64,000 nt of DNA from the sequence record PP047754; one strand, written 5' to 3'. The notes beneath the pieces were generated by a model, which was given only the letters and a program-made list of their open reading frames with translations, ran no database searches and was not told the DNA's origin. The translations under genes were made by a program, and so were the position numbers. Origin of the DNA: Escherichia phage KEP4. Below are positions 14,111-61,773 of this stretch, in pieces; within the stretch, counting starts at the first letter, position 1, and each line of letters opens with the position of its first letter.

Positions 14111-15346
14111 TCAGCGCTTCAACAAAGACATGAGGTTTACACTGGTCGACTTCGGATTGTCCTCTATCTTTCGGACGGGCATTTTCAGATTAGTGTAAAC
14201 CTCAGATGGTTCCCAACGCGTACCCTGCTGTAAATGCCATATATGTAGAGGAACACCCGTCTCAAAGAACACAGGCATCTTCCACTTCTGGACGCCAGGA
14301 ACGTGCCCTGCAGGAGCTTTTTCGCACAACAGGGTATCTGGTAGCCAGAGTGAACGGGCTTCCCATAATGCCTTACAGGAGTATTCAGGCCAAATACGTT
14401 CCATATAATCGATCTCGTCCCATGTACGCTCGGCGTCCCACCCGATGTAACGGGTATTCTTCAGTCGGAAGAATTTCTTCAGCCAACAAGCACCGGAGGT
14501 CTCAAAGTTCAGACGATTGATAAACGTGATGTGGCCAAACTCTTCAACGCATTCCTGAAACGCTTTCTCAAGGTCGGTTTCGAGTATATCACATTCTTCG
14601 TCTGTAATAGGACAACCGTTGATCTTTTTCTTCCCGTGCTTGGTCACCCAGTCGTCACGGTTTGACAAGAATGCCGCGCCGTTGCGGTTGGACTCGCTGC
14701 CATCGCGGTCACGCAGCATGAACCCAGGGACGTCGATCTCCCACATGTTGCCGAATACCATGTTCAGGGCTTCCAGGAAGTTCCAGGCGCTCAGGCGGCC
14801 AAAGTATTTCCAGGACATCGCCGTGTCCCACAGATTCGTGAATTGGTGGACAGGGATATCCAATTCAAGCATCGGTCGGAATGCTTCCATCTGAGTACGC
14901 CCAGCCAGCCAATCAATGTAGGACTGAACACACGGGATCATCTTCGACTTACGGTAACGGCAATCGGTATCGAAGCGCATACGCTCAAAGTTCAGGTTGT
15001 ACCAATCAGAAAAGCGCTGCATCTCTTCTTTGGACTGAGGAGGCACAGGGAACTCACTGTAGATTGTCCATGGACCGATGGCGTTATAACAGCAGCCCCA
15101 AAGGAACGACATCCAGATCTTGCGCTCGATCTTCTCAAGCTGTGTGATGCCTTCAGTGACTTCGATCGCATAGTCCATCAGACGCATCTGCTGGTTGTGC
15201 TCTTCGGTGTAGGACAGCGCCTCCACCCAAGCCTTGAGCAGGTACATCCGATTCTCAGGCTTGCGATAGTCAACAGCCAGGTCAATCGGGTACTTCCATT
15301 CAGCCGGGGGCGCATAGCCAGTCGGCATTTTAGAAATGTTATTCAT
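14111..15346 (-). CDS. conserved protein of unknown function; candidate DNA-base modification enzyme (tentative)
   Basis: 411-aa Trp/Cys-rich ORF clustered with a P-loop kinase, a HAD hydrolase and the DNA polymerase. No motif-level assignment was possible by eye. Confidence 0.6.
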   Translation of the reverse strand: MNNISKMPTGYAPPAEWKYPIDLAVDYRKPENRMYLLKAWVEALSYTEEHNQQMRLMDYAIEVTEGITQLEKIERKIWMSFLWGCCYNAIGPWTIYSEFPVPPQSKEEMQRFSDWYNLNFERMRFDTDCRYRKSKMIPCVQSYIDWLAGRTQMEAFRPMLELDIPVHQFTNLWDTAMSWKYFGRLSAWNFLEALNMVFGNMWEIDVPGFMLRDRDGSESNRNGAAFLSNRDDWVTKHGKKKINGCPITDEECDILETDLEKAFQECVEEFGHITFINRLNFETSGACWLKKFFRLKNTRYIGWDAERTWDEIDYMERIWPEYSCKALWEARSLWLPDTLLCEKAPAGHVPGVQKWKMPVFFETGVPLHIWHLQQGTRWEPSEVYTNLKMPVRKIEDNPKSTSVNLMSLLKR

Positions 15347-15528
15347 CCGATTTTACTCCCGAGTTCAACACGGAACGCCAGATAGAAGAAAGTGGCGATA
15401 GATACAGGACATATCACCAAGAATGGGCGCTGTTGCACCCCTTCTGTGACCATGACGCCGACCAGCGAAACCGTAAAGATAACGAACATCAACATCATGA
15501 AGATAAAATCAACCTGCTTGATTTTCAT
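15343..15528 (-). CDS. small membrane protein
   Basis: 61-aa ORF, two hydrophobic segments. Confidence 0.4.
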   Translation of the reverse strand: MKIKQVDFIFMMLMFVIFTVSLVGVMVTEGVQQRPFLVICPVSIATFFYLAFRVELGSKIG

Positions 15529-15895
15529 CTTTCACTTCCTCTACAGGAGAAACAACTTCAGGCTCAGCTTCGGGAGCCAGCTGAATTTCTTCGGGGCTTA
15601 CTACGGGCTGTCCCAGAGACCAGATAGGCAGGAAACGACGATCATTCGTCACCAACCAAATTTGCTTGGCGGTTTTCGTCTTTTCGGAAATAAAATGCTG
15701 GGCATTGACTTGGGTACGAGCCAAACCCACCTGACGCCAAGAACCGAAATCCTTAGAAGAAGGATTGGTATTCAGTTGAAATTGTGGGACGATTTTATTC
15801 TGTTCCGGATAGTAACGGACAGCGTTAATCATCTTCGCATCACCACGGTAATCAATAGCAACAGCGACAACGTTGCGTGGAATGAGGATTTTCAT
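15509..15895 (-). CDS. hypothetical protein
   Basis: 128-aa ORF with acidic Pro/Glu-rich C-terminus. Confidence 0.5.
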   Translation of the reverse strand: MKILIPRNVVAVAIDYRGDAKMINAVRYYPEQNKIVPQFQLNTNPSSKDFGSWRQVGLARTQVNAQHFISEKTKTAKQIWLVTNDRRFLPIWSLGQPVVSPEEIQLAPEAEPEVVSPVEEVKDENQAG

Positions 15896-15896
15896 T

Positions 15897-16100
15897 TTAA
15901 TTCCTTTTGAAACTCTGAATTATGTTATAGACGAAAGGCGTTAATAAGATAGCACCCCCCAAATAATATAACGCGTAAACGTTCAATATTTCGGTTGAAT
16001 CCAACTCAACGATGCCCAAATATTTCATGACACCGACGAGCACAGCTGTGATACACATCACCAATCCGACGAACACAAAATATTTAGACATCTGTTTCAT
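15897..16100 (-). CDS. small membrane protein
   Basis: 67-aa ORF with two predicted transmembrane helices. Confidence 0.4.
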   Translation of the reverse strand: MKQMSKYFVFVGLVMCITAVLVGVMKYLGIVELDSTEILNVYALYYLGGAILLTPFVYNIIQSFKRN

Positions 16101-16102
16101 TT

Positions 16103-17008
16103 CTAACCCTTACTCAACAGGCCGAGAAGGGATACAGAGGACTTTGTTACCTCTCCCTTGGCGCTCGCCTTGGTTTTAGATTTGGTCACCTTCTCAGGGA
16201 CTCGATGCGCTAGAGGATCATCCCCACCGACTTCGCGCGTCATTGGGTCAGTTTCACAGAATCCGTAGAAATCTTTGATGTCCAGACCCATGGCGTGAAA
16301 CTCACCACGCATTTGATGATGAATAGCGTTGCCAATCACCCACAAAGGTGCATCAAACGGCATCATGGCTAATTCGCTATCATTTCCTGTTTTGAATTCT
16401 TGAGTGTTTGTAGGCGATTGACGATACAACACGTCTTGCCCGCTGTAGTCATTGACCACCACTTCCCAACCCAGCACCAGCATTTCAGTCTTCGACTTCT
16501 CAAACTCCTTGGAGTAAGATTCGTTGCGTGACCAGCCGGAGTCCCCTGCTTCCTTACCAGAGCGACCACGGATGCGCGCATCATACTGATAGCGGTCTGG
16601 GTATGCAAAATAAAGCAACGCCAGAGATTCAATCGGATAGTTCTTGAACATCCATTCAGGACGCCATTTATCTGACAGCATGAGGGGTTCACCCTCGCAC
16701 ACCAAAGTGTAACCCTGAGCCAGCCAGCCTTTGACCAGATCACGGGCGATATCACCCGAGCCTGTGGCGGCGTGGATGGCGTCCATGGAAGTCCAGGAAG
16801 CCAGACCGGATTTGTTGGACACAGTATACTGGCCGACGAAGATTAACTTCAGCTCTTCGAATTTCAGGCCGAATGGGCGCGTCTTGTCACCAATGGTGTA
16901 GGTGAGTTCAGTAGGCTCCAGCTTAGTGCGGAGCCATTCGATGAACTGGACTACTCTCGTACCCTTGCCCACGCCACTTGTTCCTTTCACTACAATTATT
17001 TTAGCCAT
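16103..17008 (-). CDS. P-loop kinase (NMP-kinase-like Walker A)
   Basis: 301-aa ORF; N-terminal IIVVKGTSGVGKGT matches the GxxGxGKGT P-loop of nucleotide/nucleoside kinases. Confidence 0.65.
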   Translation of the reverse strand: MAKIIVVKGTSGVGKGTRVVQFIEWLRTKLEPTELTYTIGDKTRPFGLKFEELKLIFVGQYTVSNKSGLASWTSMDAIHAATGSGDIARDLVKGWLAQGYTLVCEGEPLMLSDKWRPEWMFKNYPIESLALLYFAYPDRYQYDARIRGRSGKEAGDSGWSRNESYSKEFEKSKTEMLVLGWEVVVNDYSGQDVLYRQSPTNTQEFKTGNDSELAMMPFDAPLWVIGNAIHHQMRGEFHAMGLDIKDFYGFCETDPMTREVGGDDPLAHRVPEKVTKSKTKASAKGEVTKSSVSLLGLLSKG

Positions 17009-17349
17009 TATGCATCTTCCTCAATACGCCAGCTCACACCGCCCAACCAGGGAGACCAGAAAACAGCAACCTGTGGGCGATCGTTTTCTACAAACTTCAC
17101 TTTATACTGGTCGTCGAAGTTATAGAAAATTTCATCGTCATCTGGTGCCATACCGTTTTCTATCAGAACACGCTTTAACTCCAGCGCCGCACCAACGGAA
17201 GTGGGTGTGGTTTGTTTACGAATGAAGTTGTTCACATGGATAATAACGCCATCCATATCGCTATCACCGGAACGCTTGTCTGGGGTTTCCCCAAACTTGG
17301 ATTGTTCTTGCACGATGTCCTCCTCAATGGACGTATTGATAATGGCCAA
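17008..17349 (-). CDS. hypothetical protein
   Basis: 113-aa acidic ORF. Confidence 0.45.
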   Translation of the reverse strand: MAIINTSIEEDIVQEQSKFGETPDKRSGDSDMDGVIIHVNNFIRKQTTPTSVGAALELKRVLIENGMAPDDDEIFYNFDDQYKVKFVENDRPQVAVFWSPWLGGVSWRIEEDA

Positions 17350-18106
17350 TCAGGCGGTTCACCACTTCGACAATATTGCGGTTCAGGAAGTCGAAGTGGT
17401 TCTGGCCTTCGACTGGTTTAATATAAAGCATATCTTCCGAGTTCGAAAGATCCAGTTTTTCATAATTTCCCTGGGGAACAAAGATGACAAAAATATTGTT
17501 CATCGCACAGGGTTCAACGTATTTCGGGTTATCATCAATTAAAACATCACCTGCCAAAAGATGCTTTTCGTCGGTGCTGACAAACCCGTTGAAGATGCCA
17601 GGGAACTTGTCATAGACAAACTGGCGCTTGCTGCGCTCGTGTTCTGGCTCACACTTAGATACTGCGATCAATTCAACATTTTCAAAGTCTTCGAGAAGGA
17701 TCTTCTTCAGATTCACCAGGAACTCGTAAGCGCCTGGAAGCGGGTTCATCTTGGCATACAGGTCCGGCATGCGCCACCAATCCATAGGATCACGTCCTGT
17801 AGGTGAATCCATCCATTGACCAGCAACAAACACACGGCGCGTCAACCATGCTGGGTGAGCGCGTTCCCGCATGAGGATCGCCAAATCACCAGCATGAGCC
17901 ATATAGCACTCTTTGGTGATACGCTGGAAATCATTGGGATAATCATGACAACCCATGTTTTCAGCAGCAGCTTTTGAATTGGAAATATTAAACCAATCCA
18001 CCCAAGGGGAGAGGCTATCAACCAAAGTCAAGTCTACGTCTACCAGGATACGATACATTCCACCGATTTTAGAATTGGCATCATACAGACCAACATGATT
18101 ATTCAT
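17324..18106 (-). CDS. HAD-superfamily hydrolase (possible nucleotidase/phosphatase)
   Basis: ORF-track frame 17324..18166; start placed at the internal Met (18106) with GGAG upstream. Motif I hhhDxDxT present (ILVDVDLTLVD). Confidence 0.55.
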   Translation of the reverse strand: MNNHVGLYDANSKIGGMYRILVDVDLTLVDSLSPWVDWFNISNSKAAAENMGCHDYPNDFQRITKECYMAHAGDLAILMRERAHPAWLTRRVFVAGQWMDSPTGRDPMDWWRMPDLYAKMNPLPGAYEFLVNLKKILLEDFENVELIAVSKCEPEHERSKRQFVYDKFPGIFNGFVSTDEKHLLAGDVLIDDNPKYVEPCAMNNIFVIFVPQGNYEKLDLSNSEDMLYIKPVEGQNHFDFLNRNIVEVVNRLIGHYQYVH

Positions 18107-18443
18107 CAGACTTCTCCACTTGATCATAACCAGTTGCGGTGCATTGCTCTTCTGTGCAATCTGCATACAGAACCACAGAAGATTCCTTCACGTAAGTGGT
18201 ACAGTGATAGGTTTCATCTTCCTGGATGGAATCGTCATAATTGCAAACAGTTTGCAACGGACCAGGAGTGGTGTTATCCAACGCAGCATGTGCCTTGATT
18301 GTGTCTTCCATCTTATTCACCGCTTGCTGATTGGTGAACGTCGGCGCATCGAGGTCAACAGTAGACGCAACGTCCAGAAGGGTAGAGCATGCAGTGGTAG
18401 AGAAAGCCAGAGCACACACCAGAAGAATCTTATTGAGTTTCAT
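18099..18443 (-). CDS. predicted lipoprotein
   Basis: Start placed at MKLNKILLVCALAFSTTAC: signal peptide with lipobox-like STTAC, mature protein Cys-rich and acidic. Confidence 0.5.
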   Translation of the reverse strand: MKLNKILLVCALAFSTTACSTLLDVASTVDLDAPTFTNQQAVNKMEDTIKAHAALDNTTPGPLQTVCNYDDSIQEDETYHCTTYVKESSVVLYADCTEEQCTATGYDQVEKSDE

Positions 18444-18503
18444 AACAATACCTGTTGTCAAAGGGATAACAGGGGGAATTATATCCCCCTTTGGTTTATT
18501 GAA

Positions 18504-21500
18504 TCAACCTTTCTTGCCCATCATGGACAACAGATTAACTCGACGTTTATGAGACCAACCAACCACATCCAAGATAGACTGAATTGGCTCTATAAAGGTC
18601 TTTTCAAACGTGGTGTGGTAATCCACCCATTTATCCAATCCCAATTCTGGAGGAAGGAAGTCAGGGAAGGCTATGCGATCATTCCCCACAGGATTGCCAG
18701 GTTTCAGGTTGATGATTTTAACCTTATCGCCAGATTCGATAGGGGGAAGACCGAGATCTTCGTGCTTATCGATCAGCTTGTTGTACATAATACAAGCCTT
18801 GGCAGCAAAGTGCGTACCGCTGATGTAATTCCCGTTCGCGTCTAACCACTTCTCAATATCGCTTACACCAGATGCCTGAGCGATATCATCCACGGTGAGT
18901 TCCATATATTCCTTTTTGTATCCAGCGATTAATTCCTGAACCTCTGCCTCAGTACCGAGCAGGACTTTCTCATAACATTTAACCAGACGCTCACGACACC
19001 ACTCAGGAGTGGTTGATTTACGCGCTTCCAGACCTTTGAATTTGATCTTTGGCTTCTCATACTTGATGCCTTCGCTATCGTATACTGCCATGCAATACAT
19101 CTTCTTGGCTCGCCATACAGCAGACGATGCGATGACCTCACGTTCCCAGACCATGCGCTGCTCAAACCCGTTCATGGTATTACACAACAACTGCGCCCAT
19201 TCACTGGTTTTTGGCTGGTAATTCTCTTTGATCCATTGGTCAATGTTATCAACGAGTTTGTGATGGTCCTTTTCTTCAGGCCACAATTGCTTGACCAGGC
19301 GTTCAATGCAAATGTAGTTGGAGTCTGTATCACCTGCGATAACAAAATCCTGACCAGTAGTACCACAAAGTTTGTTCAGATAATCATCAGTGTGGCGTTT
19401 GTTCCATTTATTGATCAACTGGCCGGAAGTGGTAATTGCTTCAGCGATGTTGATGTTGAAGTATTCTTTAAACCAGACGTTAGAAATTGCACCATATCCT
19501 GCGTTCATCAAGATCTTCAGACCTTGTTGTAACGTATCTTGGGCAACTCCCAAATCTTCCCACTTGTGCATGACTTCAGTCAGGTGATCAAGGTCGATAT
19601 GCTTGTGTTCTTCATACCATTCAGGATCGTAGAAACGAGACTTCATGGCAGATTCAAGGTGGAAATCACCTTTAGACATTTCCTTACACCAACCAGCCCA
19701 TTGCTCATACTTCAGACCAGTTGCTTTCTCTCCTTTACGGTCAGCGTATATGCCTCGCATAATTTCGGAAAGGAAAGACATCTTCTCATTACTGAAGAAT
19801 TGAACGTTCGGGGTAAACGAAACGTTATATCGACGTAATGTTTCAAAATGGAATTCACCCAGCGCGACCAATTCATCAACAACTTGTATGCGTTCATCAA
19901 TAGCACGCTGCAGCTTGTCGTGAAGATTTTTGAGATGACGGCGCTTGTTCATAGGCGTTGTCATATCATTCATCGCTTTGGTCAATTCTTCACACATGGA
20001 CTCAATGATATCGCGACGTGTGTGCTTGTCAGAAACGATAGTCTCAGGACCAAGGTTGTATTGCTGTATGATGTGGGGATACAGGGAGTTTAAGTCCTCA
20101 GAGAATACCCAGAAATATATCCCTGGTGCAACCTCCATGACATATGCGCCTTCAAAGTCCGTTGGACCATCATATACACGCTGTATTTTAGGGACAATCC
20201 CCTTTTCATAAAGACGATAGTAACACATCGCCAGCCATGGTGCTACAGTCCCAAGACCGTCTTCATAGTTAGATTTGGTGCGATACGCCAATACGAACAT
20301 CAGCTGTATCAAACGCAGCTTTTGTTCTAAACGCCACACGAGTTTGACGTCTTTGATACCATATCGGGTGTGTTTGCAATAATCATTAAAATATAGATCA
20401 TACAATGACTTGCTTTCACTATAATCCAACTTCTTCTCACCGAGTTCACAATAAGCGATCCAATCCAGTGAGTATTTTTCGCGGGTTGTGTACGTGTGTT
20501 TCTTGTAAACTTGCATGTAGTCCATCATAGGACAACCCACGAATTGATAAGAAGTCACGTCGCCTTTACGGTCTTTGATGAAACGTTTCTTGAGTTTGCC
20601 CCAAGGACTGAGGCGCTCTGCCTGAGTTTCACCGAGAACCTGCGTAATACGTTCAACCAAGTACGGGCTATCAAACGTTTCGATGTTCCAGCCAGTCCAA
20701 CCATCAAATTGACGTTCAGACCAATAATCTAAGAAAGCGCGAAGAAGTTCTTGTTCAGTCGTGTATTCTTTGTATTCAACCTCAAGACCACCTATCTCTT
20801 CATCATTTGGATCATATTTGAATTTATGGCGATCCTTAGAACACGGCATACCCCAGACATAGAACTTGTTGGTGTTCATGTCTTGAAGCTGGATGAGCGT
20901 AATAGGGAAGGCGGCATTCATGTTCTGTGTGATCTTACCATTACTATCAATGATAGGGAACTGGTCAGTCACGTTGTTGGAAATAAAGGAACCTGGGAAG
21001 TGCTCTCGAACGAAATCATGGTTGGCCAACACTTGCTTATGGAATCGGCGAACACGCGCCTCGCTCCCCTTAAACGTGTGGGATTCAATCGTCGCGTGAG
21101 GAAATGGGCCTTTAGTCATTTCTCCATCGCGCCACCCAGCCGAGAAAACTTCGATATCCACGTTGGCGATGTGAATATTTGAGTAATCGGGGGTAATCAT
21201 CCCAGGAAAACTATGCGCTATGAATTGATATGCATAATCCGTTTGTCCGTAAACGGCAGCGCCTTCGACCTCCTTATATTCCTCCAGATAGTTGTCGGCG
21301 TCACGCATTGACGCAAATTTTTTAGACACCAACGGTTCATTGAGGAGGCCAATCTTTTCAACTTTGGAATAATCGGCTGTGGGTAAATACAAGGTGGGTT
21401 CGAATTTCTTACGCAACATACGGCGATTGCCGTTGTCGTCTGCAATACGAATCAGAAGGTCGTTACCCTGTCGGGCAACGTTCGTATAGAAAACAGTCAT
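18504..21500 (-). CDS. DNA polymerase, family B (T4 gp43-like)
   Basis: ORF-track frame extends to 21659, but the internal Met MTVFYTNV... at 21500 has a GGAG RBS and avoids overlap with the divergent gene. Exo I-like NVDIEVF and motif C IAGDTDSNYI present. Confidence 0.85.
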   Translation of the reverse strand: MTVFYTNVARQGNDLLIRIADDNGNRRMLRKKFEPTLYLPTADYSKVEKIGLLNEPLVSKKFASMRDADNYLEEYKEVEGAAVYGQTDYAYQFIAHSFPGMITPDYSNIHIANVDIEVFSAGWRDGEMTKGPFPHATIESHTFKGSEARVRRFHKQVLANHDFVREHFPGSFISNNVTDQFPIIDSNGKITQNMNAAFPITLIQLQDMNTNKFYVWGMPCSKDRHKFKYDPNDEEIGGLEVEYKEYTTEQELLRAFLDYWSERQFDGWTGWNIETFDSPYLVERITQVLGETQAERLSPWGKLKKRFIKDRKGDVTSYQFVGCPMMDYMQVYKKHTYTTREKYSLDWIAYCELGEKKLDYSESKSLYDLYFNDYCKHTRYGIKDVKLVWRLEQKLRLIQLMFVLAYRTKSNYEDGLGTVAPWLAMCYYRLYEKGIVPKIQRVYDGPTDFEGAYVMEVAPGIYFWVFSEDLNSLYPHIIQQYNLGPETIVSDKHTRRDIIESMCEELTKAMNDMTTPMNKRRHLKNLHDKLQRAIDERIQVVDELVALGEFHFETLRRYNVSFTPNVQFFSNEKMSFLSEIMRGIYADRKGEKATGLKYEQWAGWCKEMSKGDFHLESAMKSRFYDPEWYEEHKHIDLDHLTEVMHKWEDLGVAQDTLQQGLKILMNAGYGAISNVWFKEYFNINIAEAITTSGQLINKWNKRHTDDYLNKLCGTTGQDFVIAGDTDSNYICIERLVKQLWPEEKDHHKLVDNIDQWIKENYQPKTSEWAQLLCNTMNGFEQRMVWEREVIASSAVWRAKKMYCMAVYDSEGIKYEKPKIKFKGLEARKSTTPEWCRERLVKCYEKVLLGTEAEVQELIAGYKKEYMELTVDDIAQASGVSDIEKWLDANGNYISGTHFAAKACIMYNKLIDKHEDLGLPPIESGDKVKIINLKPGNPVGNDRIAFPDFLPPELGLDKWVDYHTTFEKTFIEPIQSILDVVGWSHKRRVNLLSMMGKKG

Positions 21501-36950: not shown

Positions 36951-39900
36951 ATGGCCAACAAACCAACACAGCCTCTTTTCCCTTTGGGTTTAGAAACTTC
37001 TGAGTCTTCGAACATAAAAGGCTTCAACAACTCCGGCACTATTGAGCATTCCCCTGGTGCCGTAATGACATTTCCTGAAGATACTGAAGTTACAGGTCTT
37101 CCATCTTCTGTGCGTTACAATCCTGATAGTGATGAATTTGAAGGTTATTACGAAAACGGTGGTTGGTTGTCTTTGGGTGGCGGCGGAATACGCTGGGAAA
37201 CGCTCCCTTACGCTCCCTCTAGCAATTTGTTAGAAGGTCGCGGCTATCTCATTAATAATACGACAGGGACTTCTACAGTGGTTCTCCCTTCCCCTACGCG
37301 CGTTGGTGATTCAGTTACAATTTGTGATGCCTATGGGAAATTCGCGACGTATCCATTGACTGTATCTCCAGCGGGAAATAACCTGTACGGCTCCACCGAA
37401 GATATGACGATATCCACCGATAACGTGTCGGCGACTTTCACTTGGTCTGGTGCCGAGCAGGGTTGGGTTGTTACATCTGGTGTTGGCCTCGGCCAAGGTC
37501 GTGTGTACAGTCGTGAGATTTTCACTCAAATTTTAGCATCTGAAACAAGTGCTGTCACTCTCAATACTCCACCAACAATCGTGGACGTGTATGCTGACGG
37601 AAAACGTCTTGCGGAATCCAAATATTCACTAGATGGGAATGTAATCACTTTCGACCCTTCTTTACCTGCCAGCACTGAATTGCAGGTAATAGAATATACT
37701 CCGATTCAGTTGGGCACTGGCGGCGGGGGTTCGGGCGCTTCTGCAATCACCTGGATTTACAATGGCGGATCCGCTATTGGTGGCGAAACCGAAATAACGC
37801 TAGATATCGTTGTAGATGATGTTCCGGCTATTGATATAAACGGGTCTCGTCAGTACAAAAATCTTGGATTCACGTTCGACCCATTGACGAGTAAAATCAC
37901 TCTGACGCAAGAACTGGAACCAGAAGATGAAGTTGTTGTGGTTATAAATGGGACACCAAACATTTATAACCAAATCGATCGTTCTTTACAGGAAGTTGCT
38001 CGCGCCTACAATTTTACAAATGCTCAAGTTATTTTGAGCAACGATTATACTTCTGTTCTGGATAATAAAGTCGTTATTTATGATACGACATCCCAACGTT
38101 CTTGGGGGATTCCATCTGGAATCCCAGCAGGTTCTACAGTGGTTTCCGTCAATGGGGATCAACTGAAGTACAAAAATGGATCAACTGAAACCACTGTTAC
38201 ATTGGTGAGTGTACCAGGTAGTGCAGAGAAATTGAAGAACGATCTGGCTTCAAACTCTGGTTCAGGTATGTTGAAAACTTCTAGAGGTGATACCGTAGAA
38301 GAAGAATTGACTTTCATTAATCAGAATATGGTCGTTCAAATTTCAGATTTCGCGAGTCTTAGAACTTTAGTGCCAGCCACAGCGGGTATCCGAGTCAAAT
38401 TGAAAGGTTATTATTCTGGTTCTGAAATCGGTGGCGGAGAATTCATTTCTGTCGCTGGAGATGCTGTTGATGATGCTGGGATGATTGCTCGAGTGTCAAG
38501 CAGCTTCTATTGGAAGAGAATTATCGACAAACACATTACTCCTGGCATGTATGGCATCAAAGGGAATCTTCCAGAAGATCCGGCAGTGAAACTGAACGCT
38601 ATGTTTACGGCTGCGGCTGCGGCTAACGCTTATGTCTTACTGAACGATGTCGACACTCTGGTCTGTAAAAGCCCTGTCGTGATTCCAGCACATTCATTAG
38701 TGTACGGCAACAAACGAACTATACTGAAACGTGATGCATCGTTGTCATATGCTAATGATTTCTTGACAATTATGAATGATTCATATGTCAAGGGGATCTA
38801 TGTTGATGGTAGCCGTTTAGATTCTCAGACTCCTCTAGAAGCAGTTTTGGTGCGTATCGCTGGGAATGTAACTATCCATAAGAGTGAGATCCGAAACAAT
38901 GCTGGCTATGGCGTTGTTGGTAACGCAGTCCCTGGTATTCGTATCACCAAGAACATTTTTTCCAACTTCGCCAAAGGTTGTGTAGCCATGTTTGGCGACG
39001 GAACAGCGACGAGTGATGATCTGCAAATTAATGATAACAGATTCTTTAACCTGGGCGCGGGAACCATTTATGTTGGCGGTTACTCAAACTTCCTTGTCGA
39101 CAAAAACGTCGGAAGAGGCACTTACGTGGGTTCTCCAGGAAACCGTCTGTATGTTGTGACCAATACTAACGGGACTATCACCCAAAGCGCTGGGCCAGAT
39201 TTTGGGCCATTGAAAACGGGTATGTTCTTTGTATTGCCTGGTGGTTCTGAACATATGATAACGGCGGTCAACAGCCTTACCAGTGTGACAGTAACCCCAC
39301 CACCGCCGTCGAACGCCACAGTTCGTGCAATCGCAGGGACAGGGGATCTTCTGGGCATCCAATCATGCTCCTACGGCACCATCAGCCGTAACAACCTGAC
39401 CGATTGCGTGACTTACGGAACTGGTGGAGGCACGATGGAGGGGAGCACTCTGGGTTGCAATTATGTCACTTGGGAAGACAACTTCATCCGCAACACAGGT
39501 AAGAACGGAATCAACGTCGGGCAATCAGGCGCTGGGGTTGCCACGTGTTCTATCCTGAGGAACACTCTGATACAGGTTGGTAACGGCGGTCAGGGTGTTG
39601 GCCCAGCGTATCTTCTGCCTTGGTTCGATACGCTAGGTATCGCTCTGTATCAGGGAAACCCAGGTTATATGGCGAATATGGACGTCAGTGATAACAACGT
39701 CTCTACATGGTCTGGCGATCTGAATGACGGCGCTGCTTGGTTTGGTATGAGCGGTTGTACGGAAGCCACTGTGACTTGTACAGGCAACAAATCTTCTGGT
39801 TATTCCGACGGCTATGTTCGTGGAGATATATTAGAAGTCACGTTGACAGGTTATGGTACAGGGGCGGCTGCGACTTCATTCGTTAGTGATGGTGAGTCTA

Positions 39901-40124
39901 TACAGATAACCGTTCAAACAGGTACTTCACCAACAGCTTCACCTTATTTTTCAGTGCGGAAGGCGATCCGCACCCGCCATCAACCGATGATAACGGCGCA
40001 GATCGTCACCACAACTGGGAACATGTCTCATTGTTGGGGTATGCAATCTAGTACAGCAGGAAACTGGATGGTGGGTCAGAATACAACTCCTTCGGGGCTT
40101 ACGACATATTACGCAAAAGGGTAA
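36951..40124 (+). CDS. tailspike protein 1 (right-handed parallel beta-helix)
   Basis: 1057-aa ORF; PbH1-type repeats (NNAGYGVVGNAVPGIRITKNIFSNF ... INDNRFFNLGAGTIYVGG); N-terminal module homologous to that of 42756..45536. Confidence 0.7.
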   Translation: MANKPTQPLFPLGLETSESSNIKGFNNSGTIEHSPGAVMTFPEDTEVTGLPSSVRYNPDSDEFEGYYENGGWLSLGGGGIRWETLPYAPSSNLLEGRGYLINNTTGTSTVVLPSPTRVGDSVTICDAYGKFATYPLTVSPAGNNLYGSTEDMTISTDNVSATFTWSGAEQGWVVTSGVGLGQGRVYSREIFTQILASETSAVTLNTPPTIVDVYADGKRLAESKYSLDGNVITFDPSLPASTELQVIEYTPIQLGTGGGGSGASAITWIYNGGSAIGGETEITLDIVVDDVPAIDINGSRQYKNLGFTFDPLTSKITLTQELEPEDEVVVVINGTPNIYNQIDRSLQEVARAYNFTNAQVILSNDYTSVLDNKVVIYDTTSQRSWGIPSGIPAGSTVVSVNGDQLKYKNGSTETTVTLVSVPGSAEKLKNDLASNSGSGMLKTSRGDTVEEELTFINQNMVVQISDFASLRTLVPATAGIRVKLKGYYSGSEIGGGEFISVAGDAVDDAGMIARVSSSFYWKRIIDKHITPGMYGIKGNLPEDPAVKLNAMFTAAAAANAYVLLNDVDTLVCKSPVVIPAHSLVYGNKRTILKRDASLSYANDFLTIMNDSYVKGIYVDGSRLDSQTPLEAVLVRIAGNVTIHKSEIRNNAGYGVVGNAVPGIRITKNIFSNFAKGCVAMFGDGTATSDDLQINDNRFFNLGAGTIYVGGYSNFLVDKNVGRGTYVGSPGNRLYVVTNTNGTITQSAGPDFGPLKTGMFFVLPGGSEHMITAVNSLTSVTVTPPPPSNATVRAIAGTGDLLGIQSCSYGTISRNNLTDCVTYGTGGGTMEGSTLGCNYVTWEDNFIRNTGKNGINVGQSGAGVATCSILRNTLIQVGNGGQGVGPAYLLPWFDTLGIALYQGNPGYMANMDVSDNNVSTWSGDLNDGAAWFGMSGCTEATVTCTGNKSSGYSDGYVRGDILEVTLTGYGTGAAATSFVSDGESIQITVQTGTSPTASPYFSVRKAIRTRHQPMITAQIVTTTGNMSHCWGMQSSTAGNWMVGQNTTPSGLTTYYAKG

Positions 40125-40174
40125 TATTGAATGCCTAAATACCCCATATTGGTCATCCTTTATGGGGTATTATC

Positions 40175-42715
40175 ATGATTTCTCAATTCAATCAACCACG
40201 CGGTTCCACTTCCATAGAAGTTAACAAACAATCTATCGCTCGAAATTTCGGTGTCAAAGAAGACGAAGTCGTTTATTTCACTGTCGGTATTGACCTCAGT
40301 GGATTTAAAGTAATTTATGATGAGTCTACCCAACGGGCTTATTCTCTCCCTTCCGGTATTGTTTCAGGGACAACTGCAATTAGTCTGGATGAAAGAGCTA
40401 TCCTCACTCATTCTTCTGGCTCTGTTGACCTTGGGGAATTAGCAGTAAGCCGCGAAGAATATGTGACTTTACCTGGTTCTTTTAATTTCGGCCATACCAT
40501 TAATGTGAAAAATGAACTTCTTGTTCACGATGATGAAAAATATCGATGGGATGGTTCTTTGCCAAAGGTAGTTGCCGCTGGTTCTACACCCGATAACTCA
40601 GGCGGTGTTGGCACAGGCGCGTGGATACCTGTTGGCATTAATTCTTTGTCTGGCGATGGTGGTTGGTCGCGTATCGGATCAGAATTTGGTAAATCTTTGA
40701 AAGAACATATTCAAAGTCTTCCCAGCTTGTCTGCTGTCAAATATATGACATTTGTTGAATACGCAGCCCTTTTGGCAGGAAACGACACGGTCAATCATGA
40801 CGTTAAAGTTCAGCAAGTTATGGATGAAGCGCATGAATTGAAATGCTCTGTTTATTTTCCAACAGGGCGTTATGTATTTGACACTGCAGTCAACGTTTGG
40901 ACATACGTTCGCGCTGTTTGGGGAGACGGTTCGGCCATTATCACCAGACGTTACGGAAGTCAGTTTAGTTCCCCTGGGGTGATAGATCCGGCGCATGATA
41001 CGCGTAAATTATTCCGAATGATGGGCGGAGCGTTGGGACCGCAGTCTATTCATGGTCTTATTATTGATGGTAATGCGCGTTCATTTACAGTCCCAAAACA
41101 TACTGATTCGGATCAAACTTATCCCAACCAAACTTATTATGGCGATGTTGAACCAGTCGATGTTGGCCCATATGTATTTGGACCGGAAGGAAATACTTCT
41201 GTTCCTGGCGCTTCTTACTATAACCATGATAAGAAAGAATCCGGTCTGACCGTTTTCGATATGGTGTTTAAAGATCAACCTGGTGGTGGTGTCGTAGGTA
41301 ATGGCCAAAACGTCCGTGTGTTTGGAAATCACTTTATGGGTTGGTATGACCATGCTGTGTATATCGCCGGAAGTAACTTTGCCTCGGAAGGAGACGGAAT
41401 TTTGTGTAGTGATATTGTTGTCACTGGTAACGTATTCCGAAATCGTATTAACAATCGAGGCAATGGAGCAGTCAAAGCACGATTTGGTGTTAATCGTTAC
41501 GCAGTTACAGGCAACTCCTTTGATATAGTTGACTATTGCATGGCATTTGAGATGGGTAATGGACCAGCGACTCAACCATTTGGCCAAATTGTTGTGGACG
41601 GCAACGTGTGCACTTCAGATGGTATGTTTATGCAAATCGGGAATGATATTGGGACTGAGTGGTTCTCGACCAATTGGCTCAAATCAATGACTATTACGAA
41701 TAACACAGCACGGTCGTTGGATCGCATTTTCTTGTTAGGGGTTAGCGGATCTTCCAGTTATATTATGGATGGGTTTTCTGTACAAGTGGCCAATAACCGA
41801 TTTTATGCGCCGTCATTTTTGTCCGTGTACACATTCATGACGAATACGGAATGGATGTTGAATAACAATATCGTGGAGATCACAGGAACTGCTATGATCA
41901 CAGGAGTTGATCAATCGAACATCAACAATTCACGGATATATCTTAAAGATAATGTTTTAGGAGTTCTCCGGACTGATGTTCAAGGTTATGCTGCAGTCAG
42001 TAATTTTCAACAAGTTGAAATTTCTAATAATACATTGCGTAATTTGTATTTCCAAATAGGAAGTTATACCACAGATCTGTTTATTAAAGGAAATACTGTT
42101 AACTACACATCTGCATTATCCAGTAAAAACTTGGCGCTCATGTATTCAAGTGCTGGGAATGGTTTGATAACAGCCGATATCAGTGATAATAAGTTTTTCG
42201 GTGGAGTTGGTCGTTGCCAACTTAAATTCAGTAGCAGCGCTTCTCTGGATTGTATTAACAACAAATTCTTTACAACTTCGGCACCGTTTTTGGAATTGCA
42301 TCCGGCTGGTTATACTCCACGTGTCGTTCGTATAAAGGACAATTTAATGCGTGGTGCAGGCGTATTGCTGGCTCCTCTTGCTTCTGGTGTTTCTTTGTCC
42401 GGTGCTGGGAATTATATGGTAATTTCGGGAAACACGTTGATGGCTAATAACCCATCTGCGCCTGAAAATATAACTTTGTATCAGGACACAGGTGCGCAGA
42501 GTTGGGTGGCCCATTATGAAACTATCAGATGTGTTCGAAATGATTTCAAATCTGCGCTGTTGGCGATTAATGCAACAGGGACAGCACAATCTGGTTTGAG
42601 TACTACCAATAAATTCTGGTTCGGGGATAACGCGACGATTAATACCACGGTTGTTTGTACTTATCCTGCTGGCAACAAAGCCAACACCGACATCACCCAG
42701 ACAGTTTCAGTTTAA
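40175..42715 (+). CDS. tailspike protein 2 (parallel beta-helix)
   Basis: 846-aa ORF; N-terminal about 90 aa alignable to 45591..47825; beta-helix repeats (GNHFMGWYDHAVYIAGSNF ... VVTGNVFRNRINNRGNGA). Confidence 0.7.
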   Translation: MISQFNQPRGSTSIEVNKQSIARNFGVKEDEVVYFTVGIDLSGFKVIYDESTQRAYSLPSGIVSGTTAISLDERAILTHSSGSVDLGELAVSREEYVTLPGSFNFGHTINVKNELLVHDDEKYRWDGSLPKVVAAGSTPDNSGGVGTGAWIPVGINSLSGDGGWSRIGSEFGKSLKEHIQSLPSLSAVKYMTFVEYAALLAGNDTVNHDVKVQQVMDEAHELKCSVYFPTGRYVFDTAVNVWTYVRAVWGDGSAIITRRYGSQFSSPGVIDPAHDTRKLFRMMGGALGPQSIHGLIIDGNARSFTVPKHTDSDQTYPNQTYYGDVEPVDVGPYVFGPEGNTSVPGASYYNHDKKESGLTVFDMVFKDQPGGGVVGNGQNVRVFGNHFMGWYDHAVYIAGSNFASEGDGILCSDIVVTGNVFRNRINNRGNGAVKARFGVNRYAVTGNSFDIVDYCMAFEMGNGPATQPFGQIVVDGNVCTSDGMFMQIGNDIGTEWFSTNWLKSMTITNNTARSLDRIFLLGVSGSSSYIMDGFSVQVANNRFYAPSFLSVYTFMTNTEWMLNNNIVEITGTAMITGVDQSNINNSRIYLKDNVLGVLRTDVQGYAAVSNFQQVEISNNTLRNLYFQIGSYTTDLFIKGNTVNYTSALSSKNLALMYSSAGNGLITADISDNKFFGGVGRCQLKFSSSASLDCINNKFFTTSAPFLELHPAGYTPRVVRIKDNLMRGAGVLLAPLASGVSLSGAGNYMVISGNTLMANNPSAPENITLYQDTGAQSWVAHYETIRCVRNDFKSALLAINATGTAQSGLSTTNKFWFGDNATINTTVVCTYPAGNKANTDITQTVSV

Positions 42716-42755
42716 ATTGAATTGAGCCTAAATACCCCATATTGGCAAATCCTTT

Positions 42756-45536: not shown

Positions 45537-45590
45537 AAATATACCCCTCTTCGGAGGGTATTTACTAGAGAAAAACAGGAGATTCTTATT

Positions 45591-47825
45591 ATGAATCCGC
45601 AATTTGCTCAACCAAAAGGTTCTACTTCAAAAGAATCGAATAAAGATAGCATCGCCCGTAAATTTGGGTGCAAAAAGTCGGAAGTCGTTTATGCGAAATC
45701 AGGACAGTCCTTGTCTGGTTATAAGGTTATTTATGACAAGGAAACACAGAGAGCGTATTCCTTGCCTGTAGATATTCCAGCAGGAACCACGGTTATTAGC
45801 CTTAGCGCCAGTGCTCTGCTTGTACACTCTGGGGGTTCTGTAGACCTGGGCGAACTAGCTTCCCAACGCAATGAATATAATGTATTACCTGGTTCTTTTA
45901 CTACTGGTGCAATAGTATCCACAAAGAATGATGTACTTACCCACAATGGTATCCAGTATCGTTGGAATGGTTCATTACCTAAAGTTGTACCTCAGAACTC
46001 TTTACCATCCAGTGATGATAATTGGATTGGCTTGGGTGCTTCTTATCTGAAGGAACAGCTTAACAGTACCAGTGGTGCATCCATGGTAGTACTGGCTAAT
46101 GGCAAAACCATTGAAGAAGAATTTGCCGAAGAAGCTGCATGGCAGAACCAAGAGAATATGGTGAGAACCGTTATTCCTAATGTTTATCACCATATCCGTG
46201 GCGTTCAGCGTCACTCTGGTAAAAACTTAGCATGGTCTGCTCCAGACGTTGCTATTGATAAACTTAACCCTACGGATACCGTCTTCTACCGTATGCCCCA
46301 GATTGTTAAAACTGGTGATGGTACTCTGATGATTTTCTGTAATGAGTTGCATGGTAACAATACAGATATTGGTGCTACTCCAGATCAGCAATGTAATATC
46401 GTTATGAAATACTCCATTGATAATGGGTGGTCTTGGTCGGCTAAGGTAGTGGTAGCTAACTTTGGGGCTACGTATCAGAACGGTGAGATTGCTGCTGTGT
46501 ATAACCCAGCAGATGGTCGGGTATACTGTTACTTTACTTCCTGCAAAGGCCAGTTGGGTTGGGGATACTCACAGCCAGGCAATGACCCTAATACATCATC
46601 CCAGATATATGTTACCTACTGTGATGCGGAAGCTCCTACTATATGGCGTACACCAGCTAACCTTACTGCTACCCTTAAGCCAGCAACGGCAGATTTTATC
46701 TGGACTTCACCAACTAAACCAGTTGTTTTACCGGATGGTAAGATGGCAATGATTGTGTCTACCGTCACTGGTTCACGGGTTGATTCTTTCCTTACCATCA
46801 TGAAGTATGACATTAAGTACAGCATGGACTACGTACTTAGTTCCGAAGAATCTGGTGGGGAAGTCGGACTGAACCTTTTGCCGGATGGTCGTATGGTGAT
46901 GAACTCTCGTGCTTACCACACCACAGACCTTAAAGGGCTTCAGAAATTCTATATCAGTGATCATCAGTTTAAGAACTGGCAGCACTTATCTGATTTAGTT
47001 ACATCGGATAGTAAGGGTGACCTGGTTCCTATTTTTGATGGGGTTAATGGTGTTCTTACTTGGGCGTTTACTTGTGCTAATGGTGTAGGTGATAATTCTA
47101 TTGGTCGTACTAACTACCGAGTATGGATTAGTCGTGACCTAGTTACTTGGGGGTTAGCTCCTACTGGGGATATCAACACAAGTGATTCTGTTGGGTACAT
47201 CGCATCAATGCCTGGTGGTGATGATGGTTATGTAATCTCTACATCTGAATCAGGTGGTTTTGGTGGTATTTGGTTTACTCAATGGAATGCTAAGTATATC
47301 CAGAACAGAAACTACAACCGCTATCACAAAGAGTTGCGAGAATTAGAGTCAGTAGATGAAACAGCAATGCTCGCATCCGGTGCTATTCCTAACTACTCTT
47401 TTTACGTAAACAAAGACTCCAACCTAATTAACTTCAACCGCAACGGTACTCCAGTTAAGATTCAGCAGTTGGGGGTTAGTCAGAATGCTGTTGATAAGTA
47501 CACTACAACTCAGACCCTAGCATCTATTCCTGTAGATGGTGTTGATATTGTATTAGTCACTGGTTCTGGTACTACTCTTACCCTTAGTGGGTTTAGCGGT
47601 GGATATATGGGCCAGCGTGTGACAGTTATCTCTGATTCATCTGGTGGTGGGGTGGTGCTTAAACGTGCTGATACAACATTGCCTACTGTAACGGACAGAT
47701 TCCACTTTAATGTGGCAGGAGCCTTTACTGCTTTGAGGGTAGACTATGCAACTAAGATGATGGCTACTTTAGTTAAGACTCCATCTGGTTGGTTCACGGA
47801 AAGTATTGCTAACGTAACAATCTAA
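45591..47825 (+). CDS. tailspike protein 4 with putative sialidase/BNR-like domain
   Basis: 744-aa ORF; N-terminus homologous to tailspike 2; one canonical Asp-box SIDNGWSW and one degenerate (SRDLVTW). Confidence 0.65.
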   Translation: MNPQFAQPKGSTSKESNKDSIARKFGCKKSEVVYAKSGQSLSGYKVIYDKETQRAYSLPVDIPAGTTVISLSASALLVHSGGSVDLGELASQRNEYNVLPGSFTTGAIVSTKNDVLTHNGIQYRWNGSLPKVVPQNSLPSSDDNWIGLGASYLKEQLNSTSGASMVVLANGKTIEEEFAEEAAWQNQENMVRTVIPNVYHHIRGVQRHSGKNLAWSAPDVAIDKLNPTDTVFYRMPQIVKTGDGTLMIFCNELHGNNTDIGATPDQQCNIVMKYSIDNGWSWSAKVVVANFGATYQNGEIAAVYNPADGRVYCYFTSCKGQLGWGYSQPGNDPNTSSQIYVTYCDAEAPTIWRTPANLTATLKPATADFIWTSPTKPVVLPDGKMAMIVSTVTGSRVDSFLTIMKYDIKYSMDYVLSSEESGGEVGLNLLPDGRMVMNSRAYHTTDLKGLQKFYISDHQFKNWQHLSDLVTSDSKGDLVPIFDGVNGVLTWAFTCANGVGDNSIGRTNYRVWISRDLVTWGLAPTGDINTSDSVGYIASMPGGDDGYVISTSESGGFGGIWFTQWNAKYIQNRNYNRYHKELRELESVDETAMLASGAIPNYSFYVNKDSNLINFNRNGTPVKIQQLGVSQNAVDKYTTTQTLASIPVDGVDIVLVTGSGTTLTLSGFSGGYMGQRVTVISDSSGGGVVLKRADTTLPTVTDRFHFNVAGAFTALRVDYATKMMATLVKTPSGWFTESIANVTI

Positions 47826-47831
47826 AATACA

Positions 47832-47858
47832 AGCCCCCAATAAGGGGGCTTTCTTTTG
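47832..47858 (+). terminator. rho-independent terminator
   Basis: AGCCCCC-AATAA-GGGGGCT hairpin followed by TTCTTTTG, just after the tailspike 4 stop. Confidence 0.7.
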
Positions 47859-47955
47859 CTATGTCTCGTTAACCTGACAGGAACTGGAAGTTCAAAACTA
47901 TCTATTGGCTGTATACTAAATATCTCTATAAAATGGCACTCGATGGAGCATCAAA

Positions 47956-61706: not shown

Positions 61707-61773
61707 TGTCCTCGGTGCTGGGGGAATGTTATTCCCCCTCACTAATTACAAGAAAATGTTGAGGACTTAGATC

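Follow-up and report, generated by a model that had tools for sequence, protein, structure and literature searches.

The 64,000-nucleotide stretch of Escherichia phage KEP4 DNA analysed here (sequence record PP047754, referred to throughout as the window) carries on its minus strand, directly behind a family-B DNA polymerase gene, a small gene whose product is a lipoprotein of the Pfam family DUF7292. Read from the amino-terminal end, the gene and the parts of its protein are as follows.

18099-18443, minus strand: coding sequence of the DUF7292 lipoprotein precursor, 114 aa, from the ATG at 18443-18441 to the TAA at 18101-18099, taken from the list of open reading frames (ORFs) and the sequence.
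18390-18443, minus strand: signal peptide, residues 1-18, with an n-region MKLNK, an h-region ILLVCALAF and the lipobox residues S-T-T-A before Cys19.
18387-18389, minus strand: TGC codon of Cys19, the predicted diacylglyceryl-modified first mature residue; the +2 residue is Ser, and the Cys column is invariant in alignment A1.
18336-18386, minus strand: predicted flexible tether, mature residues 20-36, modelled with low confidence and the place where alignment A1 has indels.
18114-18335, minus strand: predicted folded periplasmic domain, residues 37-110, with a helix at 38-55, four antiparallel strands and the invariant Cys67, Cys81, Cys96 and Cys101.

Taken together, these features make it very probable that the protein is exported by the Sec pathway, processed by signal peptidase II (SPase II), lipidated at Cys19 and anchored in the inner leaflet of the outer membrane (OM), from which a tether of about 17 residues would hold an acidic, disulfide-stabilised, cystatin-like domain in the periplasm.

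An AGG(T) resembling a Shine-Dalgarno element lies 7 nt 5' of the ATG, and an element of this kind precedes the ATG in all seven orthologous loci compared; a TTG located 18 nt upstream of the ATG is a less likely alternative start. The protein begins MKLNKILLVCALAFSTTAC and continues with STLLD..., and under the lipobox rule PROSITE PS51257 Cys19 is the acylated residue. The segment VCALAFSTTAC fits this rule, the charges of the n-region being K2 and K5, and only two of the 676 window ORFs that start with Met and reach at least 50 aa conform to it, the other being a 53-aa ORF that is annotated in no record. A rule-conforming lipobox was likewise found in 30 of 32 DUF7292 members, despite varying signal-peptide sequence, so that the signal peptide with a lipobox-like STTAC described in the first-pass annotation is borne out. 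Under the Lol-avoidance rule, Asp at +2 governs lipoprotein sorting; since the +2 residue is Ser or Ala in every lipobox-bearing member and never Asp, sorting to the OM is predicted. The Thr at position -3 of the lipobox is unusual, and could raise the suspicion of a chance ORF, or of a cytoplasmic protein with a signal-peptide-like N-terminus. We consider this extremely improbable, given that many orthologues carry classical LSAC, LSGC, LTAC or LAGC boxes, and given the strong purifying selection, curated Pfam match and four invariant cysteines described below.

The mature protein comprises 96 aa with a pI of 4.05 (19 D+E against 4 K+R), four cysteines beyond Cys19 and a proline content of 3.1%, in agreement with the small, Cys-rich acidic domain that had been proposed for it. 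It ends ...GYDQVEKSDE, and no C-terminal transmembrane domain (TMD) was found, windowed hydropathy remaining at or below about 0.5 past residue 28. These properties extend across the family: every one of the 32 members has exactly four mature-part cysteines, which occupy invariant columns of the alignment, and all are acidic (pI 4.0-4.5) with 2-6% proline. The four invariant cysteines fit an oxidising compartment, where they would be expected to form two disulfides.

We built an AlphaFold2 model on a 24-sequence family alignment. Mean pLDDT by 10-residue block was 45-51 over residues 1-30, 79 for residues 31-40 and 82-94 over residues 41-110, the signal peptide and tether (residues 1-36) being modelled with low confidence. 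The domain itself is a single helix (38-55) on a four-stranded sheet (63-70, 78-85, 90-96 and 101-108), and its fold may be cystatin-like. A Foldseek search of the model against the PDB gave no significant match, the BFVD fold search returned only a 69%-identical family member, a sequence-profile search of the PDB yielded nothing below E 0.47, and none of the cystatin Pfam families (e.g. PF00031) matched at E up to 0.1. VirB8-like periplasmic domains and the PepSY-type domain of YpeB have also been named in connection with this fold. The stretch QTVCN (residues 64-68) is part of a predicted strand, whereas the QxVxG motif of cystatins is found in a hairpin loop. Both cystatins and the colicin M immunity protein act as binders or inhibitors, and the modelled fold suggests a binding or inhibitor module without identifying the function.

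The protein matches DUF7292 (PF23964) over its full length (residues 1-113 of 114; E 2.4e-53; 179.4 bits against a cut-off of 27) and phrog_3748 at E 3e-64, these being its sole Pfam and PHROG matches. The label "putative lipoprotein" is already used in GenBank for kage (kage_192, MT074476), moki, RC-2014, May and Maynard; gene and family alike are catalogued as a lipoprotein of unknown function, and neither is unusual in structure or genomic setting. A word-indexed search of 5.8 billion proteins gave 23 DUF7292 clusters, and an exhaustive profile search of 1.84 billion representatives only 6 (at 50% identity); every member whose context was checked sits in an Ackermannviridae-type phage locus. 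By tblastn, the gene was found in 277 phage records (Salmonella, Klebsiella, Escherichia, Dickeya, Serratia, Shigella, Erwinia and Enterobacter phages), and the neighbouring DUF7254 gene in the same number, with a nearly identical organism breakdown. Searches of NCBIfam and PADLOC with the lipoprotein gave no meaningful match. This distribution bears on the idea that the protein manipulates host envelope physiology for ends unrelated to other phages, for instance by blocking an envelope-stress sensor, or by conferring immunity in the latent period to bacteriocins that act in the periplasm or to type VI effectors. Such a role is distinctly unlikely in our view: bacterial homologues are lacking among the 6 profile-search clusters, the loci being of phage type where checked, neither PADLOC nor NCBIfam offers a match, and the structural match is weak and the fold a common one.

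Amino-acid identity to the window protein is 90% in Dickeya phage RC-2014, 69% in Klebsiella phage Magnus, 49% in Erwinia phage Bue1 and 42% in Serratia phage phiMAM1, values that resemble those of the neighbouring enzymes and lie below those of the polymerase, and dN/dS is 0.07 against RC-2014 and 0.10 against Magnus. The gene is thus a core gene under purifying selection and not a fast-evolving host-range gene, and its wide conservation and slow, enzyme-like evolution fit a conserved partner better than a receptor mask engaged in an arms race. The two most divergent members (P0028 and P0029) have an ordinary signal peptide (…VSA/M and …AFA/F, the slash marking cleavage) without a lipobox Cys, and they retain the domain, which points to the periplasm as the compartment in which the family as a whole acts. 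Most members have the lipid anchor, but it is dispensable.

The gene is embedded in a same-strand operon of replication and thymidine hypermodification genes, in which the following features were located.

18504-21500, minus strand: family-B DNA polymerase, 998 aa, the upstream neighbour (Pfam DNA_pol_B_exo1 and DNA_pol_B; phrog_262).
18478-18507, minus strand: sigma-70-like match TTGATT-18 nt-TATAAT (10/12), from a consensus scan and a pattern only; its -35 overlaps the polymerase stop codon.
18472-18489, minus strand: hairpin GGGGGA-TATAAT-TCCCCC between the polymerase stop and the lipoprotein start, read from the sequence.
17324-18106, minus strand: NT5C-like (HAD) deoxyribonucleotidase homologue, the downstream neighbour (Pfam NT5C, E 8.7e-8; phrog_420).
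17008-17313, minus strand: DUF7254, a member of the thymidine hypermodification cluster.
16103-17008, minus strand: HMUD2, the 5-hmdU DNA kinase of thymidine hypermodification (Pfam PF18747, E 3.5e-149), in the same-strand operon.
14111-15346, minus strand: ADDT, the amino acid:DNA transferase (Pfam PF18724, E 2.8e-61), in the same-strand operon.

The adjacency to the DNA polymerase gene noted at first reading is therefore real, and it extends well beyond this phage. The 6-kb region around the gene shares 100% identity with Salmonella phages SFP10 and kage (Ackermannviridae, Kuttervirus), with 271 matching phage records, and the window accordingly belongs to an SFP10-like Kuttervirus. The polymerase lies directly upstream in five Ackermannviridae genera and in the metagenomic locus L011, and two small ORFs stand between the genes in L009 and L010; small ORFs are inserted at this locus in phiMAM1 as well as in L009/L010 and are not conserved across the family. 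The order polymerase, DUF7292, NT5C-like, DUF7254, HMUD2 is kept in Kuttervirus, Limestonevirus, Taipeivirus, Miltonvirus and Nezavisimistyvirus and in three metagenomic loci, which carry anchor-less DUF7292 forms. Further downstream of HMUD2 lie ADDT, in the loci where this could be checked, and rIIA/rIIB. Given this strict synteny we considered a role in DNA hypermodification, and rejected it: an exported, disulfide-bonded protein cannot act on cytoplasmic DNA.

The ATG of the NT5C-like gene overlaps the last codons of the lipoprotein gene by 8 nt (ATGAATAA), and a 4-nt overlap of the two genes is annotated in RC-2014, Magnus and Bue1, which suggests translational coupling. The lipoprotein would be made together with the replication and DNA-hypermodification proteins. 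A scan for the T4 late-promoter motif TATAAATA gave one match where 1.9 were expected by chance, a count below chance that says nothing about timing.

A hairpin with a -10-like hexamer in its loop, and with a differing stem, occupies the same place in all seven orthologous loci (7/7). Such hairpins were noted directly behind the polymerase stop codon at window positions 18471-18507 (minus strand) and in the equivalent intergenic stretches of L005-L009 and L011. The stems differ while pairing is kept: GGGGGC-GGTATACTA-GCCCCC in phiMAM1, GTGGGG-TGATAATA-GCCCCAC in Bue1 and GGCTGTA...TAATAT...TACAGCC in the metagenomic relatives, with a TCAATAA motif upstream. Folded one by one, the whole intergenic stretches of the seven loci reach -17 to -22 kcal/mol each. 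The TTGATT/TATAAT match is identical in Limestonevirus and Taipeivirus, and its -35 is not conserved in more distant genera. The hairpin could be a leaky terminator, an attenuator, a promoter, or a terminator and promoter both. Window positions 61720-61738, in the structural-gene part, hold another palindromic hairpin built in a similar way, GGGGAATAACATTCCCCC, which differs from the one behind the polymerase by 3 mismatches.

Several side observations concern the surrounding genes. Small predicted membrane proteins are interleaved within the thymidine hypermodification cluster (14111-18106, minus strand), at 15897-16100 and 15343-15528. In Dickeya phage RC-2014, the polymerase gene (L005, 896-5938) is in three pieces, split by HNH and homing endonuclease genes, and the HMUD2 homologue (L005, 7532-9025), a 497-aa protein bearing the annotation 'endonuclease', can be aligned with the window kinase for 287 residues only and may be a fusion. 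The whole window aligns to kage as a circular permutation (kage 126288-157658, then 1-32664), with the exception of the tailspike region: window positions 38002-42722 and 45574-47905, which make up this module, do not align, while the flanks are 95-96% identical, and the phage of the window thus carries different tailspikes from kage.

We next weigh what a small, Cys-containing OM lipoprotein of a phage might do, beginning with lysis. As an OM spanin subunit, either an o-spanin or a unimolecular spanin, it would serve the last lysis step, and like the Rz1-type o-spanins it is a small OM lipoprotein with cysteines. O-spanins are, however, Pro-rich and largely unstructured, whereas the DUF7292 proteins have 2-6% proline and a confidently folded domain. 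No i-spanin gene adjacent to, overlapping or embedding the lipoprotein gene was found in any locus examined; the acidic C-terminus without a TMD differs from that of a unimolecular spanin of the T1 gp11 kind; two orthologues have no lipid anchor at all; and the gene lies inside the replication operon. A spanin function is accordingly very hard to sustain. The first-pass annotation had also argued against an o-spanin, from the lack of a recognisable lysis cassette nearby; its conclusion stands on the grounds just given, and its reasoning does not, distance being a weak argument: in T4, too, the spanin genes lie apart from those for holin and endolysin.

One point in favour of a spanin is that the annotated spanin pair of these phages, kage_61/kage_62, is atypical, and that the real o-spanin of the phage is not firmly identified. 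These two genes (L003, 24016-25022, outside the window; phrog_3843) are widely annotated as 'i-spanin' and 'Rz-like spanin'; kage_61 is a Cys-rich protein of 229 aa, and kage_62 (MKIKILLLFLCTFMSSQVLAAP...) has no rule-conforming lipobox and resembles an ordinary secreted protein. The annotated pair is therefore a weak argument against the lipoprotein as an o-spanin, and the Kuttervirus spanin annotation may be in need of re-examination. A hidden, embedded o-spanin was also sought: a genome-wide lipobox scan gave a 60-aa ORF (kage 103085-103267) with no TMD-bearing partner, which we judged spurious. Separately, kage_37 (L003, 5666-6280, outside the window; DUF7424/phrog_3832, 204 aa) is a second candidate lipoprotein of unknown function; from a GTG start (kage 40319) it reads ...MIMVLALTSC, which fits the lipobox rule, and it adjoins tail-completion genes.

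A further lysis-related possibility is that the lipoprotein controls wall or envelope enzymes on behalf of the phage, for example by restraining the phage muramidase or host hydrolases and proteases until lysis, or by detecting secondary adsorption as part of a lysis-inhibition circuit in the manner of T4 RI. An acidic periplasmic domain with an inhibitor-like fold, a basic phage endolysin (pI 9.0) and the presence of rIIA/rIIB in the genome would all be compatible with this. We nevertheless regard it as unlikely, as the gene belongs to the replication operon and not to the late or lysis genes, and as the protein bears no similarity to RI or to known lysozyme inhibitors. The first 40 residues of the endolysin, moreover, hold no obvious export signal, so that it would meet the lipoprotein only at lysis.

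Receptor masking is the third function to be considered, and its model is Llp of phage T5. Like the window protein, T5 Llp is a phage-encoded, SPase II-processed small OM lipoprotein with disulfide-forming cysteines, and it acts from the periplasmic side, on FhuA (PMC9586334). By the same route, the DUF7292 lipoprotein would bind the periplasmic face of an OM protein serving as terminal receptor or entry port, closing that port to later phages as well as to progeny set free among cell debris. A tether of about 17 residues would keep the domain near the membrane, as this requires, and a receptor shared by Enterobacterales would fit the wide conservation of the gene. The resemblance does not reach further, however: in hhalign, alignment A1 and T5 Llp matched over 16 columns, all of them signal peptide and lipobox, at a probability of 26%, with no similarity between the mature domains, which measure 96 aa in the window protein and about 61 aa in Llp. 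The loci differ too, llp adjoining the receptor-binding gene oad, and the window gene lying between the DNA polymerase and NT5C-like genes, in a replication operon more than 18 kb from the tailspikes. Two distant orthologues, furthermore, are soluble and not membrane-tethered. DUF7292 is common to phages of Salmonella, E. coli, Klebsiella, Dickeya, Serratia and Erwinia with different tailspikes, which argues against host-specific receptor masking, and we know of no protein secondary receptor for Ackermannviridae. Masking of this type is thus improbable, and the suggestion of Llp/Cor-like superinfection exclusion or receptor masking made in the first-pass annotation finds no support as regards membership of that group or receptor masking.

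Our preferred reading, which we put forward tentatively, is that the lipoprotein binds or inhibits a conserved target in the periplasm and thereby protects the envelope of the infected cell. Acting stoichiometrically, it would shield the envelope of a cell already infected against renewed attack, and so confer superinfection immunity comparable to what Spackle and Imm provide in T4. Its target would be a component shared throughout the phage family or throughout Enterobacterales, as opposed to a serotype-specific glycan receptor. No homologues of T4 Sp, Imm or Imm.1 were detectable in the Kuttervirus genome, so that an equivalent function, if present, must lie with unrelated proteins.

One candidate target would be found in the gp5-like central tail spike (kage_100; L004, 1828-3453, outside the window), where a basic CHAP peptidoglycan-hydrolase domain takes the position occupied in T4 by lysozyme; its local pI is 9.0-9.4, against 4.05 for the lipoprotein. 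In T4, Spackle, a small disulfide-bonded periplasmic protein, binds a basic patch of the gp5 lysozyme (PMC7677548). By analogy, DUF7292 might be the Ackermannviridae counterpart of Spackle, an OM-tethered cystatin-fold inhibitor of the incoming papain-like CHAP hydrolase, a specific form of the proposal that we hold to be doubtful: an acidic cystatin-like periplasmic protein facing a basic papain-like hydrolase is an attractive analogy only. Similar CHAP domains occur under gp5-type annotations in ICP1 and in Rhizobium and Sinorhizobium phages.

A number of points weigh against envelope protection, and against the CHAP target in particular. CHAP-type spikes are also found in phages without DUF7292, for example ICP1 and phiM9-like phages, and among Klebsiella Ackermannviridae phages the CHAP domain is 96% identical whereas DUF7292 is 58-69% identical; CHAP spikes being both more widespread and better conserved, a co-occurrence test is uninformative and no co-variation supports the pairing. 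The lipoprotein has no detected sequence similarity to any known exclusion protein, and to our knowledge superinfection exclusion has not been demonstrated for Ackermannviridae. The positional parallel with T4, set out below, could be a coincidence within a conserved replication module. In the literature, we found no infection transcriptome for Kuttervirus and no paper on DUF7292, and searches for CBA120 or Ackermannviridae lipoproteins yielded nothing on the gene. As a separate observation on exclusion genes, kage_66 (L003, 26867-27187, outside the window) is a homologue of P22 gp17 (PF17420, 'superinfection exclusion gene product 17'), and a protein of this type counteracts a prophage exclusion system rather than causing exclusion (PMC9409062).

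Ackermannviridae phages, Kuttervirus among them, are widely employed and investigated as agents to control Salmonella, E. coli O157, Klebsiella and Dickeya, and they carry one invariant exported protein whose role is unknown. If this lipoprotein excludes secondary phages, it would affect how such phages behave in cocktails, and it would be a non-homologous addition to the set formed by Spackle, Imm and Llp. Were it to inhibit CHAP, the protein would make a useful reagent, and it would represent both a new kind of proteinaceous CHAP inhibitor and an additional way of excluding superinfecting phages. The place behind the polymerase where T4 encodes Imm.1 and these phages DUF7292 would, by extension, be a recurrent envelope-immunity slot in T4-related phages. 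As it stands, the lipoprotein is a well-defined candidate that is cheap to test and holds no surprise.

Comparison with other known systems places the lipoprotein beside several proteins to which it shows no relationship in sequence. The colicin M immunity protein Cmi (2xgl) is 6% identical to it, with no Pfam match between them; Cmi is anchored in the inner membrane. T4 Spackle (gp61.3) resembles it in being small, exported, disulfide-bonded, periplasmic and encoded among replication genes. Spackle, however, is an all-helical bundle with a cleaved ordinary signal peptide, whereas the window lipoprotein has an alpha+beta model, and the spike enzyme is a CHAP domain in these phages and a lysozyme in T4. 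The hhalign probability between the lipoprotein and Spackle (PF25676) was 1.3%, and the lipoprotein gave no Pfam T4_Spackle match.

The closest parallel in gene order is with T4 imm.1. The T4 map reads 43 (polymerase), imm.1, imm (superinfection immunity), 42, beta-gt, so that imm.1 and the DUF7292 gene, both coding for small predicted lipoproteins, immediately follow the polymerase gene and precede genes for DNA modification, an analogy of position only. The N-terminus of Imm.1, MKIAILVIALGLAGC, is a canonical predicted lipoprotein signal (LAG/C), and four further cysteines follow; imm.1 itself (L012, 4637-5014, minus strand) belongs to DUF5481, bears the RefSeq product name 'iduronate sulfatase' and has no known function. 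In hhalign, the lipoprotein and Imm.1 matched at a probability of 2.4% and in the signal peptide only, their Cys spacing differs, and tblastn and phmmer searches with Imm.1 against the whole Kuttervirus genome gave no match at E below 0.1. Imm, in turn, is an inner-membrane protein with two TMDs, unlike the window lipoprotein. Superinfection exclusion in the broad sense would nonetheless be a plausible and reasonable function for the DUF7292 lipoprotein, one that the position of imm.1 and imm in T4 supports to some degree by analogy.

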